Notes: generated by a model not told the origin, from the sequence alone. A stretch of 7,315 nucleotides of DNA from Candidatus Vampirococcus lugosii (GCF_018420025.1 NZ_JAEDAM010000058.1:1-7315); one strand, 5' to 3'; positions 1-7,315 are shown, counted from the first letter of the stretch. A program made the numbers and translations.

Positions 1-1
1 A

Positions 2-949
2 AATGATTGAAAAAATTGATGAACTACTTGAAATTATTTGGTTATTAATAGTGATTTAACAGAAAATGAAGAAATAAATGAAAAAATATCTTGATCTTGA
101 GATTTAAGTGAGGTTGAAAAAGTATCAGATACTTATTTTAAAGAAAGTGGTGGTAGTATTTCAAGTTGAGCAAGTGATGGAGGCTGAGGAAGTGATGAAA
201 TAGATACCCCTATAAATAATCCTTTTAAAGATTTAGAATATAATACTTGAGATGTTATTGAAGTTAATGGAAATAACATTATATATGCTTGAACTCAAAA
301 CCGTGATTGAGAAGAATATATTTTAATGACTTATGATGCTTCAGATTTATGAGATTCTGGTCGATTATTTAAAGATTGAACAAAAGATAAGTGGACTAAA
401 AATGATTGAGATAATTGGAGGTCTTGTAATGTTTATATAGATTGTTGACATATGCGGGGAGGTGCGACTGTTTTTGATGATATGAATAAAAATCCTTATA
501 TTAGATATACTTGATTATTTGTATCAAAAAGTGGTGAACAAGTTTGGTGTGGAGATTCTAGTATTGAGTACTGTAATGATGCTTCAGATTGAGATAAAAA
601 TACTGATGAAATAATTGAATTTTTTTCAAATACAGATAAGTCGGAAGAAATATATCCGAGATATACTGCTGCTGAATTTTGTAGAGATTTAAGAATATGA
701 TGATATAATGATTGGTATTTACCTGCAAGACAGCAATTATCAATTATATCTACTATTTTAGATAAAAATATAAGATATCTTTCTTCTACTGAATTCGCAA
801 ATAACGACCCTAATTCAGGTAATTGGTTATACGAATATAATGAGCTTGGTGGTTTATGGACAAAAAAATCAGTGCCCTGGGATATGAGTAACTGATGACA
901 TGCACTGCTTTGGGATGAGCAGACACTTTGTATTCGTGAAAGTCAATAA
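2..949 (+). CDS. DUF1566 / Lcl C-terminal-like domain protein, probably secreted or surface-exposed (5' end outside window)
   Basis: Frame 2 is open from the window edge to TAA 947-949 when TGA is sense (21 in-frame TGA by hand count). The C-terminal part (about 668-946) reads AAEFCRDLRIGGYNDWYLPARQQLSII...YLSSTEF...NWLYEYNELGGLW...LCIRESQ*. This fits the DUF1566 pattern A-x-x-C...G-x-x-DW-x-LP...L...S[ST]...C-[IV]-R near the C-terminus. Upstream are a Gly/Ser linker SGGSISSGASDGGGGS (146-193) and several Cys. The terminator hairpin follows directly. Confidence 0.65.
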
Positions 950-955
950 GAGTAA

Positions 956-990
956 ACAAAAAAACATTTCTATTAAGAAATGTTTTTTTT
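956..990 (+). terminator. Rho-independent terminator hairpin, A-tract/T-tract flanked and so possibly bidirectional
   Basis: It lies 7 nt after the TAA. The stem is aaaaaaacatttc (958-970), the loop tattaa (971-976), and the return arm gaaatgttttttt (977-989), giving up to 13 bp. The core acatttc/gaaatgt is followed by a run of 8 T (983-990). Only 2 G:C pairs, so it is a weak stem. Confidence 0.55.
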
Positions 991-1225
991 ATGTTTTCGG
1001 GCGAGGACCCTCATCTTTGTAGAACAAAATTTCTAAATTCTTGATTTAGATAAGGATTTGCGAGAAAATAAAAATAGATTTATGTGCTAAACAAATTTAT
1101 ATAATAATTGTAGATTTGATATTTAAAGATTTTGGTTTGCAATTTTTTTTTACATTTTACATATTTTAGATTTTTTTCTCAACTGTTCTTGTTTTGTAAG
1201 ATTAATTTTATTTTTAAATATATAT

Positions 1226-2341
1226 TTAAATTGTTTTTAGATATCAAATTCATCATCATTTAGCTACATTCAATATTTTACTTTCTGAAAATCTTGTTAG
1301 GATTAATCATTCTGAAATAATATCTCAATTTTTTATAAAAAAATGAGGACATACATCAAAATAAACTTCTTTTGATATAATTTTATCTTCTTGAAAAAAA
1401 TTTATTTTATTTTTTTGTGCTTCAACAAACTCTTGTGCAATAAAATTTGTATTTAAATTAGTTTCTATAATTTTTTGCCAATCTGACTGTTTTATATCTT
1501 TTCATATATATATGTTACCTCATTCTATTCAATTTGATGCTTTAATTACATAAAAATCTTTATTTTTAATTATTTTATTTTTATTTTCTTCGTTTACATC
1601 TAACTTTTCCAAAATATACGAATGTTTAATTTCAGATAATAATTCTTTATAACCTAAAGTCCACATATCAAAAGTATTTATAAAATCTATTTTATACTTA
1701 TAAAATTTTTCCCAATTTTTAATACTTAATTTAGAAGTTTCTAAACATCTTCTTATTTTATCTATTTTTATTCATTTATAATAAATTCAATCATCATTAA
1801 AATCTAATTCAGAAAATGTTCATATATTTACATTAAATCAATTTTCTTTCAAGAAAAAATATTCAGTATAATAAGCATCTTTAAAAAAAACTCATTCTGG
1901 ATATAGAATAAAAATTTTTTCATTTTTATCAAAAAACTTTAAAAAATTATTTTTATGTAAATTTTTTTCTTCATTTAATAAAACAGAATATGTATTATCA
2001 TGCATTAATAATCAATCAGGGTAATCAGAGTTTAATTCTATTATTTTTATGTTATTATTTTGATCTAACATACAATCAAATCTTACAACTCAAGTATAGT
2101 TATTTTGAAATAAATTTTGTATTACTCATTCATTATTTTGATTCATAAATTTTATTTTTTTAGATTTATCTATTTTCATAATTTCTTCAAGTATATATTT
2201 ACAATTTTTTATTAATAAATCTGAAATAATATATTCATTAGACATTAACTTATTTGCAATAGGCAATTTAATTTCTCATTTTGATATAGGATAATATAAT
2301 TTCATTTTGGACCAAAAATCTTTATATTTACTATTTGACAT
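1226..2341 (-). CDS. ATP-grasp superfamily enzyme (glutathionylspermidine-synthase-like or circularly permuted ATP-grasp type 2-like), substrate unknown
   Basis: ATG at 2341-2339 is preceded by an in-frame TAA (2350-2348). I checked the frame codon by codon down to TAA at 1228-1226: 371 aa with 18 in-frame TGA. Motifs read: VVRFDCMLDQNNNIKIIELNSDYPDG (R-x-D...E-x-N-x-D-x-P pre-ATP-grasp signature), FYVIKASNGIEGGNIYIG (K-x-x-x-G-x-x-G-x-G-[IV] phosphate loop), FIAQEFV, and C-terminal LTRFSESKILNVAKGGGIGY. Family-level call only. Confidence 0.6.
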
Positions 2342-2377
2342 ATTTATTTAAATTAATTTTTAAAAATTCAACTTCCT

Positions 2378-2407
2378 TATATATAAAGATTTTATTTTTT
2401 TTTTCAA
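2378..2407 (-). promoter_or_regulatory. Candidate sigma70-like promoter for the ATP-grasp gene
   Basis: On the minus strand: TTGAAA (2407-2402), a 16- or 18-nt A/T spacer, then TATATA (2385-2380 or 2383-2378), followed by AGGAAG. The ATG lies about 36 nt downstream. Sequence pattern only, in very AT-rich DNA. Confidence 0.3.
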
Positions 2408-2538
2408 TATTATTATTTTTTACATTACATTTAAATGTATTATTATTTTAAATTTAAACAAAAAATATAAAAAATCACTTGAAAAAAAAATATAATAGAT
2501 TAGATATAATATATATTTTATTTTTTTATATTTTTTGT

Positions 2539-4092
2539 ATGATATACAAAGTAAAAACTATATCAAATATTTGACTTGATTGATATGAAGTAATAATTGA
2601 ATCAGATAGTAATAGATCTTTACCAACTATAGATATAGTTTGATTGCCAGACAATTCTATAAAAGAATCAAAAGAAAGAATTAAATCAACTTTTAGATCT
2701 GTATGAATTGAATTGCCTCCTAGGAAGATTATACTTAATTTATCGCCATCAGATATTAAAAAAATTTGAACAAGATTTGATTTAGCTATGGCAGTTGCTA
2801 TATTATTTTTGACTTATGAAGGAGATTTACAAAATTCAGATTTTATTAAAAATTCTGTTTTTTTCTGAGAACTTGGTTTAGATTGAAATTTAAAATCTAT
2901 AAATTGAGTGTTGCCAGCCGTATTGTATGCAAGGAAAATTTGATATCAAAATTTTTTTGTTCCACAAGAAAATTTATATGAACTTAAATATATAAAATGA
3001 ATAAATATTTATCCAATATTAAATTTTTCTCAAATAGTTGATTTTTTTGTCAAATGAGATATTTTAGATAAAATTATTTGATGAATAAATTTTGATGATT
3101 TATCAAATGATTTAGATAATCTTGAGAATGATTTTGAAAATATTTCATGACATGAATTAGCAAAAAGAGCTTTGACAGTATCAGCTGGTGGATTACATAA
3201 TTCTTTGTTAGTAGGACCTCCTTGAAGTGGTAAAACTATGCTTTGTAAAGCAGTTCAAACAATATTGCCACCTATGAATTTTGATGAAATTTTGGATCTT
3301 AGTCAAATATATTCTGTAATTTGAAAATTAAATAAACATAAACCACTTATTACTTCTAGACAATTTAGAACAGTTCATCATACTGCATCAAAAGTTAGTA
3401 TTATTTGATGATGAAATTTTCTTACTCCATGAGAAGTTAGTTTGGCACATAATTGAATTTTATTTTTTGATGAATTAGCAGAATTTCCTAGAACCGTTTT
3501 GGAAGTACTTAGACAGCCAATAGAAGATAAAATTGTTAATATTTCTAGAGTAAATGGAACTGTTTCTTATCCTGCAAATTTTATGTTTATAGCTTCTATG
3601 AATCCTTGTAAATGTTGATATTATAAAGATATGGAAAAAAATTGTACTTGTTCAATAAATGAAATTAAAAAATATCAATCAAAAATTTCTTGACCTTTAT
3701 TAGATAGATTTGATATGATACTAGAAATACCTAGACAAAAAGTAGAAAAAATAATAAATAATAAAAAAGATGAATTGTCATCAAAAAAAATAAGAAAAAA
3801 TATAGAAAATGCTTGGAAAAATCAACAAAAAAGATTTATCTGATTAGATATAAGTTCTAATTCTCAAATGTCTAGTTCACATATAAATGAATTTATAAAA
3901 CTTGATGATAATAGTAAAAATTTATTGGAAACAGCTAGTAAATCACTAAATTTATCACCTAGAGTGATACATAGAATTATGAAATTATCAAGAACAATAG
4001 CTGATATTGAAAATTCTGAAGATATAAAACAAAAACATTTGGCAGAAAGTTTACAATATAGATCTAAAAATATGTTTGTAGAAAATGAATAA
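2539..4092 (+). CDS. comM: ComM/YifB family Mg-chelatase-like AAA+ ATPase (competence-associated helicase family)
   Basis: 517 aa with 24 in-frame TGA, ending at TAA 4090-4092. The N-terminus [23 protein letters not shown]...IVGLPD is typical of the family. Also present: FGELGLDGNLK; Walker A LLVGPPGSGKTM (3214-3237, TGA at 3223); [29 protein letters not shown] (Walker B, 3403-3480); RQPIEDK; [11 protein letters not shown] (3616 TGA); [10 protein letters not shown]; and a C-terminal [20 protein letters not shown] helix. Track ORF 3868..4092 is the tail of this frame. Confidence 0.93.
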
Positions 4093-4119
4093 ATTTTTAT
4101 TATTTATTCTTAAAATATT

Positions 4120-4695
4120 ATGAAAAAGAAAAAATTTAATTGACAATCAAAAGATGAATATGTTTTATATTTTGCTAGAGAAAATTTTTTAAGATATTTT
4201 TTTAGTAAAATAGCTGATTTTGGTACTATATTTTGAATTTGATTAATATTTATGTTTATTTCATTAGTTTTTAATAAAATTATAGTAGCTATTATTATAG
4301 CCTTGTTTGTTGTTTTTACAACTTTGATTATGTATGTATTTTTATTTTGGCGAAATACATATTTAATTATTACTAATGATAGATTGATAAAATTTTCAAG
4401 AGATGGTATATTCAAAAGTCATATAAGAGAAATAAATATTTATTCTATTCAAGAATGTATTTCAAAATGTTGAGGTTTTATTGATAAAGTATTAAATTGT
4501 TGAAGTGTGACTTTTATAGGTAAAGATTTAAAAATTCAAATATATTTTGATTGAGTAAATTATCCTGAAGAATTAACTATGTATGTAAGTAGATTAAGAG
4601 AATTTATGAAAAATAATTCTGAATATCCTCCCAAAGAAATAACATGTTTTATGCCTAGAAAAATTAGAAAAGAAATAAAAAATAAAAAATTATAA
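4120..4695 (+). CDS. Small membrane protein with two TM helices and a bacterial PH (bPH_2 / YdbS-YdbT-like) domain
   Basis: ATG 4120 lies 27 nt after the comM stop, so co-transcription is likely. 191 aa with 6 in-frame TGA, ending at TAA 4693-4695. It has two hydrophobic stretches, FGTIFGIGLIFMFISLVF and IIVAIIIALFVVFTTLIMYVFLF. These are followed by WRNTYLIITNDRLIKFSRDGIFKSHIREINIYSIQECISKCGGFIDKVLNCGSVTFIG, which matches the Y-x-[IL]-T-x-x-R-[LI] ... G-x-[LV]-x-[IF] layout of membrane-flanked PH domains. Track ORF 4252..4473 is an internal fragment. Confidence 0.55.
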
Positions 4696-5709
4696 TATTG
4701 ACCAATATCATGAATTTGATTCATAAATAAATCATTTAATTTCCAACATAGAAATATTTGTAATTACTTCATCATAACTTAATCATGAATTTACAATAAT
4801 TTCTTTTAGACTAATGTTTTCTTGAGAGATAGATAAATAAATTTTTTTTTCAATTTCATTTAATTCTGATATATTTTTATTATTTTCTTTATTGTTTATA
4901 TATTCTTCATTATTTCATAATTTATCTTGTACAAAATCCTGTATATCAAAAATAGATTCAATAAATCATTTGGAAATATATCTATTAACTCATTTTGAAT
5001 TTTTTTCAAAAATTGAGTTTGGACTTGCAAATACTGGTATATTCATTTTTTTAGCAAAATCTACAGTTATTAAACTACCAGATTTATCTCCTGCTTCAGG
5101 AACAAAAACAAAATCACTAATTCAAGCAATAATTCTATTTCTCTGAGGGAAACTGTAATTAGTTGGTCTCATCTTAATCTTAAATTCTGACAAAATTAAA
5201 CCATTATTTTCCAATATTTTGTTGATAATATTTCTATCACTTGAAGACAAAAAATATCAAATTCATCAACCCAATACAGAAATTGTAGGAATATTATTTT
5301 CAATAGATAAATTATGACATAATTGATCAATTCAACTAGCTAATCAAGAAATAGTAGCTATATTTTTATATCATTTTAATTTATCAAATAATTCTTCAAG
5401 AATTTTTTTTCAATAATTAGACAAATTTCTAGGTCATACTATAGCTATTATTTTGTGTTTATTTAATAATTGAAAATTTCATATAGAATATATTATATGT
5501 GGTGTAGATTTAATTTTTGATAATCTAAAATGAAATGAATCAGTATTTTTAATATGTAAATCAATATTATTATTGTTTACATAATCATAAATTTTATCAA
5601 AATTATATCATAATAAATCTTCTTTTTTTAATTTTGATAATTGAGAAAGAGTTATTTTTTCATCTAAACTATAAAGTAAAGCTTTTTTATAATTAAGGTC
5701 AAAATTCAT
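4690..5709 (-). CDS. dprA: DNA processing protein DprA/Smf (recombination mediator loading RecA on incoming ssDNA)
   Basis: ATG at 5709-5707 with an upstream in-frame TAA (5727-5725). I verified the frame to TAA at 4692-4690: 339 aa with 17 in-frame TGA. Motifs read: IAIVGPRNLSNYG; ATISGLASGIDQLCH; IPTISVLGGGIGY; SEF...PTNYSFPQRNRIIAGISDFVFVPEAGDKSGSLITVDFAKKMNIPVFASP. The C-terminal winged-helix-like tail reads EKKIYLSISQENISLKEIIVNSGLSYDEVITNISMLEIKGFIYE. Confidence 0.9.
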
Positions 5710-5752
5710 TTTTAAAGTCAAATATTATTTTTTTGTAAAATGTAATAAATTA

Positions 5753-6670
5753 TTATTTAGATATTTTATATTTTTCAGCTCATATGAATATTTCTCAATT
5801 AATTATTTTTAATATAGATCTTTCATTTTCAAATTCTCATATTTTTTTTCCAAAACTGTAATCTATATCTATTACTTTCAATTTATCAAATCTATCTACT
5901 AATCCACCAAATCAATTGTGTCAATTTATAATAGTATCTATTCAGATATCATAGATATTATTGTATATATATTCTTTTTCATAATTAGGTAAATTTCTTC
6001 TTCTATTTCATAATAAAAATATATTTGATATATAAAAAAATTCTTTCATTAAAGAGTTATTAATAGGTTTTTCTTCATGAATTAAAGATGCAACTCATTT
6101 ATTAAAAATACCATTTATATAGTCAATTCATTTATCCAAAATTATATTCAAAATTTCATAGGTTGGATTTGTATGAATAAATAATATGGATCAACTTCTA
6201 TATACTAATTTATAAGTTTTTATTATTTCAATTAAATTTTTTCATTTATCAGAATTTTTCATATTATATATAATATTTTTACTGTCATTTCTAAGTTTAT
6301 CAAAATCATTACAATTTTGAAAATCATCACTTGCAAATTTTTTAAATTCTATCAATCATTTAAATGTTCATTTATAACTTGTATATTCAGATTTTGTAAA
6401 TAAATAAAGCAATGCCTTGTAATCATGATTTCCAGAAATTAATTGAATTTGACAATTATTTTTTTCAGCATTTTTTTTTATTTCTCTAATTTTAAGTAAA
6501 ATATCAATTCAATTAGTATGTCTATCAGCTAATATATCTCACAAAAAAATACATATACAGTTTTTTCATATCCATTTTCATTTGTCATCTATTAAAGATA
6601 ATGATTTTAAATTTTCATAATATGCATTTAAATTTCAATGTAAATCTCATATTACATAAATATCACTCAT
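5753..6670 (-). CDS. Calcineurin-like metallophosphoesterase (PPP family, ApaH/PrpE-like)
   Basis: ATG at 6670-6668. I verified the frame to TAA at 5755-5753: 305 aa with 19 in-frame TGA. The canonical motif series is present. It comprises IYVIGDLHGN (6635-6649, both Gly are TGA), IFLGDILADRHTNG (GD-x-x-DR-like), LISGNHD, LFIHTNP, and INGHNGFGG. It lies 43 nt upstream of dprA on the same strand. Confidence 0.8.
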
Positions 6671-6707
6671 ATACAAAATTAACTTTAAAAAAATTAAATA
6701 TTTCCTA

Positions 6708-6736
6708 TATATAATTATTTTTGATATACATTGCAA
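6708..6736 (-). promoter_or_regulatory. Candidate sigma70-like promoter for the metallophosphoesterase-dprA unit
   Basis: On the minus strand: TTGCAA (6736-6731), a 17-nt spacer, then TATATA (6713-6708), followed by TAGGAAA. The ATG is 37 nt downstream of the -10 box. Pattern only. Confidence 0.35.
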
Positions 6737-6802
6737 GTAATTTTTTATTATTTACTAAAAAGTAGTTAAGAATTTAAAAAAATTATTTATATATAGTTAA
6801 AT

Positions 6803-6830
6803 TTGACATATATTAAATATTATTTATAAT
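6803..6830 (+). promoter_or_regulatory. Candidate sigma70 promoter for the gene starting at 6881
   Basis: Perfect consensus hexamers: TTGACA (6803-6808), a 16-nt spacer, TATAAT (6825-6830), 50 nt upstream of ATG 6881. The TTGACA hexamer, with its G and C, stands out in this AT-only spacer. Confidence 0.45.
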
Positions 6831-6880
6831 TATTTTATATATTAAATATATATTTAAATTCTAATTAAAATATAAACAAA

Positions 6881-7315
6881 ATGGCTTTTGATAAAAATCA
6901 AATTAAAATAAATTTGGATATAGACGATGAAACAATTAATAATGAAGAATCAAAAACTTCCGATTTTAGTATTAATTTTTGAGAAGAATTAGAAAATAAT
7001 GAAGATAATGAAAATAATTTATTACAAGATAATGAAAATGAATCTAATGAAAGTAATAATATTAATGATTTATTGCAAATGGAAAATAACTCTCAAGAGT
7101 ATAAAAAAGAATTTAATATTGAAACTGAAGAAAAGAAAGAAAGTGAAAAAAATAAAATTAATTTCACAAAAATAAATATATTAGAAAATATTGATGATGA
7201 ATGACTTAAAGTTAACAATATAGATGATAAAACAAAAGATTTTGAAATTTTTAAAAATCATAAAAAAAGAAAGAGAAAAAAAATAATTTTTAGATCTGTT
7301 TGAGCTCTTTCTATT
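6881..7315 (+). CDS. Hypothetical protein: acidic Asn/Glu/Asp-rich N-terminal region, polybasic patch, then the start of a hydrophobic segment (3' end outside window)
   Basis: ATG 6881 is the first start after in-frame TAA 6866-6868. The frame stays open to the window edge (145 codons, 3 in-frame TGA). The sequence reads MAFDKNQIKINLDIDDETINNEE...NEDNENNLLQDNENESNESNN...KKRKRKK (7262-7282) IIFRSVGALSI. I recognise no family. Low-complexity AT-rich frames can stay open by chance, so coding status rests on the promoter, the ATG context and the length. Confidence 0.55.

Follow-up and report, generated by a model that had tools for sequence, protein, structure and literature searches.

The 7315-bp stretch of DNA considered here, referred to below as the window, makes up one whole contig of Candidatus Vampirococcus lugosii, a predatory bacterium of the Absconditabacteria (SR1), and the question it raises is what the codon TGA means in its genes. 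Read with the standard code (NCBI translation table 11), the contig is nearly gene-free. Only five open reading frames (ORFs) of at least 60 amino acids are found, some of them on the wrong strand, and together they comprise 393 amino acids, or the roughly 1.2 kb given in a preliminary description of this DNA. When TGA is read as glycine (Gly), the same DNA contains the genes of ComM, DprA and a metallophosphoesterase, together with four genes for lineage-specific proteins. There is very little doubt that the source organism uses UGA as a codon for glycine (NCBI table 25): in this DNA UGA is translated and stands for glycine, UGG keeps its meaning of tryptophan (Trp), and UAA is the stop codon in actual use.

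The coding structure of the window establishes that TGA is translated. Once TGA counts as sense, 6567 of the 7315 bp (89.8%) fall in seven contiguous genes, in agreement with the seven genes and about 90% estimated earlier. Stop-to-stop frames of at least 100 amino acids then add up to 3115 amino acids, compared with 351 under table 11, a ratio of 8.9. The same ratio ranges from 1.2 to 2.2 in 17 of 18 comparison loci from other genomes, and the remaining locus, with a ratio of 6.9, is a 2.5-kb stretch rich in tRNA. Freeing TAA or TAG as sense codons instead, over the whole window, gives no comparable gene map. The seven genes consist of 2189 codons, among which are 108 TGA (a hand count had put the number at roughly 108), 36 GGN and 16 TGG codons, and no internal TAA or TAG is found in frame in any of them. 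Off-frame in the same DNA, TAA makes up 6.3% and TAG 2.5% of triplets, together about 8.9%, and the in-frame count of zero is therefore not a matter of chance. The visible gene ends are TAA in six of six cases, and TAG is unused as a stop among them; the statement in the preliminary description that all genes end in TAA holds for these six of the seven, the stop of gene 7 lying beyond the 3' edge of the window. If the standard code applied, the region would be non-coding or a series of decayed pseudogenes, and the TGAs would be true stops. The short fragments that are all table 11 yields are what such a reading would predict, but it is contradicted by 2189 consecutive in-frame codons without TAA or TAG, by full-length products with high profile scores (524 bits for YifB, TIGR00368, and 197 bits for DprA), and by the retention of the TGA positions as TGA or GGN in 24 relatives. 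It is already refuted, and its probability is practically nil.

The ORF structure alone does not distinguish table 25 from table 4, the code of Mycoplasma, Spiroplasma and some insect endosymbionts, in which TGA specifies tryptophan, and a low guanine-plus-cytosine (GC) content, 20.6% in the window, is typical of table-4 lineages. The two codes were separated by the Pfam scores of the seven gene products, in which TGA was rendered as Gly, Trp or the mask X. With Gly, X and Trp, respectively, the Mg_chelatase match scores 282.3, 246.9 and 236.5 bits, the ChlI match 133.4, 109.6 and 99.7 bits, and the DNA_processg_A match 196.9, 159.4 and 150.3 bits, an order that supports the earlier assignment of TGA to glycine and not to tryptophan. 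The Metallophos match reaches 26.4 bits with Gly (cut-off 21.5) and is absent with X or Trp; the Lcl_C and GSP_synth matches also vanish when TGA is taken as Trp. In a 20-residue scan, in effect a small-scale Codetta test, each amino acid was placed at 33 TGA sites of a construct of ComM and DprA and scored against three Pfam families. Glycine is top in all three families taken singly, and it leads the summed scores (G 606.9, A 530.3, S 528.7, T 524.1 and N 522.7 bits) by 76.6 bits over the runner-up, alanine. Tryptophan is 17th of 20 with 481.5 bits, about 125 bits under glycine, and leucine is last with 476.2 bits. Judged from the codon counts of the window, the table 4 reading would also imply a composition of 5.7% Trp and 1.6% Gly.

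The positions at which TGA occurs within recognizable motifs are as first listed. In ComM, TGA encodes the Walker A glycine (3223-3225, within GPP[TGA]SGKT at 3214-3237) and also stands within the GGG encoded as TGATGATGA (3406-3414), with further TGAs at 3430, 3454 and 3616. In the metallophosphoesterase, both glycines of GDLHG (6647-6649 and 6635-6637) and the glycine of the GD motif (TGA at 6539-6541) are encoded in this way. DprA has TGAs at 5434-5436, 5344-5346 and 5332-5334, as well as GGT TGA TGA at 5263-5271. In gene 1 the Gly/Ser linker contains gga ggc tga gga at 179-190, and the DUF1566 gat tgg is located at 710-715 in a gene with eight TGG codons.

Solved structures from standard-code bacteria, to which X-masked queries were aligned, point to the same amino acid. 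Of the 24 TGA sites of gene 3, 15 correspond to Gly and 3 to Ala in Legionella ComM (8rxd), and none to Trp. Glycine is found under 8 of 11 TGA sites in S. pneumoniae DprA (3uqz) and under 6 of 13 in H. pylori DprA (4ljr). Trp lies under no window TGA site in any of these homologs from the Protein Data Bank (PDB).

The DNA of relatives provides evidence that is independent of any translation table. ComM genes from 24 genomes and metagenome contigs of Absconditabacteria, whose GC contents range from 22 to 42%, were compared codon by codon. The columns of the window's 24 ComM TGAs are filled in these relatives by 236 TGA, 276 GGN and 64 other codons, without a single TGG; the other codons are mostly confined to a few variable columns. 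A smaller, earlier set of relatives compared in the same manner gave 73 TGA, 35 GGN, 11 other codons and no TGG. Such interchange of TGA and GGN is the pattern of synonymous codons, and the columns under the TGAs are Gly in the solved homologs and GGN or TGA, never TGG, in the relatives, in line with the glycine reading of the preliminary description. TGG codons of the window are matched by TGG in 5 of 6 ortholog comparisons, and the family column at W77 of gene 4 contains W or Y. The TGA share of ComM Gly codons, which is 77% in the window and 97% in the nearest relative, rises among the relatives with falling GC content (r = -0.78). Two further candidates were not carried into the comparison: positions 14010-15044 of locus L001 were dropped as a DprA ortholog (identity only 14%), and positions 3149-4117 of locus L003 were left unused as a gene 6 ortholog (identity only 22%).

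Public protein sets might at first appear to favor tryptophan, since many pipelines render the TGA of relatives as W. More than one W is present in 108 of 119 ComM orthologs in the protein database (P0002-P0120), and those 108 together show 1254 G and 977 W in the columns of the window's TGAs. By comparison, in 11 NCBI table-25 translations the window's TGAs face G in 234 of 264 cells and never W. Across 120 database orthologs the W and G counts are strongly opposed (r = -0.95), a trade-off which indicates that many pipelines translated the relatives' TGA as Trp. The table 4 reading is already refuted by the profile scores, the standard-code structures and the relatives' codons, and the chance that TGA means tryptophan is very slight. 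These counts also call for caution, as in large public protein sets most ComM orthologs of the clade show Trp at positions that are in truth Gly.

The recoding of UGA as glycine in SR1 and Gracilibacteria has been known since 2013. NCBI proteins of Ca. Vampirococcus lugosii are identical to the Gly translations of gene 1 (P0271), gene 3 (P0001) and gene 4 (P0121), and P0001 has G at all 24 TGA sites of gene 3. The organism is classified in Candidatus Absconditibacteriota, and of the 120 best ComM matches, most of which are nameless, all that carry a name come from Absconditabacteria/SR1 bacteria. The preliminary description had placed the source among the code-25 lineages and had called the code rare rather than new; the source is indeed an Absconditabacterium, and the contig was deposited with table-25 translations. 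The recoding is likewise known for this very organism, as its 2021 genome paper reports UGA as Gly and used Prodigal with table 25 (PMC8080830). UGA has also been inferred to be Gly in six of six Absconditabacteria species (PMC8629427).

The window and the table 25 code have in common UGA as Gly, UGG as Trp and UAA as stop, as well as low GC content and an uncultivated, host-dependent lineage belonging to the CPR (candidate phyla radiation). No difference in kind separates them, although TGA is unusually dominant in the window, where it makes up 108 of 144 Gly codons (75%), with GGC used once and GGG not at all. Table 4, which is used by Mycoplasmatales, Entomoplasmatales and several insect endosymbionts, resembles the code of the window in that the same stop codon was captured at low GC content and termination at UGA was lost, but the captured codon is Trp in table 4 and Gly in the window.

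Published work on the clade suggests how UGA could be decoded in this organism. A dedicated tRNA-Gly with the anticodon UCA would read UGA, and would carry the identity set for glycyl-tRNA synthetase (GlyRS), namely G1:C72, C2:G71, G3:C70 and U73. Release factor 2 (RF2) would have been lost, so that termination no longer takes place at UGA, and release factor 1 (RF1) would serve UAA and UAG. Extreme adenine-thymine pressure, reflected in the GC content of 20.6%, has since raised TGA to the main glycine codon. The tRNA-UCA-Gly and RF2 criteria for UGA as Gly are described by Shulgina and Eddy (PMC8629427). Release factors are not mentioned in the genome paper (PMC8080830), and there is no text on tRNA or RF2 in Hanke (2014).

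Several observations weigh against the assignment of UGA to glycine. Roughly one in four TGA sites of ComM (56, 154, 181, 182, 435 and others) lies in a variable column and is uninformative on the identity of the residue. ARAGORN finds no tRNA in the window, and the decoding machinery is not seen within this 7.3-kb contig of a 1.3-Mb genome; the 37 tRNAs that the same program finds in 86 related loci all have anticodons other than UCA. A scan of 185,579 species genomes, one genome per species, for a canonical cloverleaf with a Gly acceptor and a UCA anticodon gave 18 matches, none of them in Absconditabacteria or Gracilibacteria. The zero matches in the clade reflect either a failure of the pattern or a non-canonical tRNA in the clade, and are no evidence of absence.

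The 18 matches are all in unrelated standard-code genomes (e.g. L090, L091, L093, L094, L096, L097, L098 and L100). They are canonical tRNAs of 71-75 nucleotides in which a UCA anticodon is combined with an acceptor stem of the Gly type, and several of them occupy the glyT slot in a Thr-Tyr-Gly-Thr tRNA cluster. The coding density of these genomes indicates that they do not use code 25, and the scattered tRNAs might act as natural suppressors of UGA or stem from errors in assembly.

Another question is whether table 25 describes the whole of the clade's code. Absconditabacteria have been predicted by Shulgina and Eddy to read CGA and CGG as Trp as well (PMC8629427). If this prediction for the clade applied to the window, three residues annotated as Arg would be Trp, which would refine the assignment of UGA to glycine rather than replace it; this extension is a real possibility, at somewhat less than an even chance. 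Evidence for it comes from the relatives. At the ComM Trp column corresponding to window positions 3814-3816, the relatives (L007-L027) have TGG 12 times, CGA or CGG 11 times, TTC once and AGA or CGT never, and the other CGA and CGG codons of the relatives' ComM genes lie in Tyr/Phe/Trp columns. In the nearest relatives (L001-L004), reading CGA as W instead of R raises the PLDc_2 score by 6.6 bits and that of the GlmS SIS domain by 2.3 bits, the remaining Pfam changes upon this swap being neutral (+0.6, +0.5 and -0.7 bits).

The window itself lends the extension little help. CGA and CGG account for only 3 of its 2189 codons (362-364, 455-457 and 4351-4353), all of which are read as Arg in the deposited proteins, and the five closest ComM genes contain neither codon. 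The sole testable codon is the single CGA of gene 4 (codon 78, 4351-4353), which is immediately 3' of a conserved TGG and appears Arg-like: the nearest ortholog has AAA (Lys), and the codon lies in a weak bPH_2 match that scores 17.4 bits with R, under the cut-off, and 16.0 bits with K, but disappears with either W or X. The bPH_2 family column at this codon contains R 18, Y 16, K 8, H 6 and W 2 times. The two gene 1 codons (CGA at 362-364 and CGG at 455-457) have no homologs, and homolog searches with genes 4 and 1 returned self-matches only, plus one paralog fragment for gene 1. The window shares its clade with the extended Absconditabacteria code, under which relatives alternate CGA or CGG with TGG at a Trp column, but differs in that CGA and CGG are nearly extinct and the one testable codon is Arg-like. 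Given the published prediction, table 25 may fall short of the clade's full code, with at most three residues affected in the window. That CGA has a different meaning, or an ambiguous one, in Vampirococcus lugosii and in its nearest sequenced relatives is unlikely. If CGA were Trp-like in the relatives and Arg- or Lys-like in the window, the boundary of a sense-codon reassignment would lie inside this family, and deposited table-25 proteins on one side or the other would be wrong at CGA sites.

The features of the window are summarized in Table 1.

Table 1. Genes and a hairpin in the 7315-bp window, with the number of in-frame TGA codons per gene.
Feature	Position	Strand	Description	In-frame TGA
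Gene 1	2..949	+	Hypothetical surface-type protein; 5' end truncated by contig edge	21
AT-only hairpin and T-run	954..996	+	Directly 3' of gene 1 stop	
Gene 2	1226..2341	-	Hypothetical protein; weak glutathionylspermidine-synthase pre-ATP-grasp match	18
Gene 3	2539..4092	+	ComM/YifB Mg-chelatase-like AAA+ ATPase	24
Gene 4	4120..4695	+	Small membrane protein, DUF304/bPH_2 type	6
Gene 5	4690..5709	-	DNA-processing protein DprA	17
Gene 6	5753..6670	-	Calcineurin-like metallophosphoesterase	19
Gene 7	6881..7315	+	Acidic low-complexity protein; continues past 3' edge	3

The NCBI counterpart of gene 1 is annotated as "VAMP_201n1, partial". Its C-terminus is weakly Lcl_C/DUF1566-like, with an Lcl_C score of 20.1 bits that is obtained with the Gly reading only and compares with a cut-off of 34.9. 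The N-terminal part (window 2-190) consists of a leader module, SDLTEN.EINEKISGSGDLSEVEK.SDTYFKESGGSISSGASD, with 94% identity to the partial Vampirococcus protein P0272, which has beta-helix repeats and is encoded by a contig of 13.3 kb. The break in the assembly at this point is probably due to this repeated leader. The hairpin that follows gene 1 has a folding free energy of -13.2 kcal/mol (z = -3.9), and none of 200 shuffled sequences was equally stable. It is likely an intrinsic terminator, which a terminator scanner missed because the stem has no G-C pairs.

The GSP_synth match of gene 2 scores 22.5 bits with Gly and 16.7 bits with X, is not found with Trp, and is in every case under the cut-off of 29.3. 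Gene 3 matches the YifB-family ATPase model TIGR00368 of NCBIfam with 524.2 bits (cut-off 362.4) and the PDB structure of ComM (8rxd) with E = 1.5e-84. NCBI places the start of ComM at a TTG at 2479, 20 codons upstream of the first ATG (2539). The resulting 20-codon extension (KKKYNRLDIIYILFFYIFC) is unmatched in relatives, whose proteins start at the position aligned with the ATG. An ortholog of gene 4 adjoins ComM in the relative locus L001. The product of gene 5, for which the DNA_processg_A score is given above, reaches 183.9 bits with the dprA equivalog TIGR00732, just below the cut-off of 191.15. Genes 4 and 5 are convergent and overlap by 6 bp, and the palindrome TTATAA (4690-4695) holds both of their TAA stops.

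An Rfam scan of the window gave no match, and in a promoter scan promoter-like sites were no more numerous in the window than in shuffled sequences. A perfect sigma-70 consensus, TTGACA-16-TATAAT, is located at 6803-6830, 50 bp upstream of the start of gene 7.

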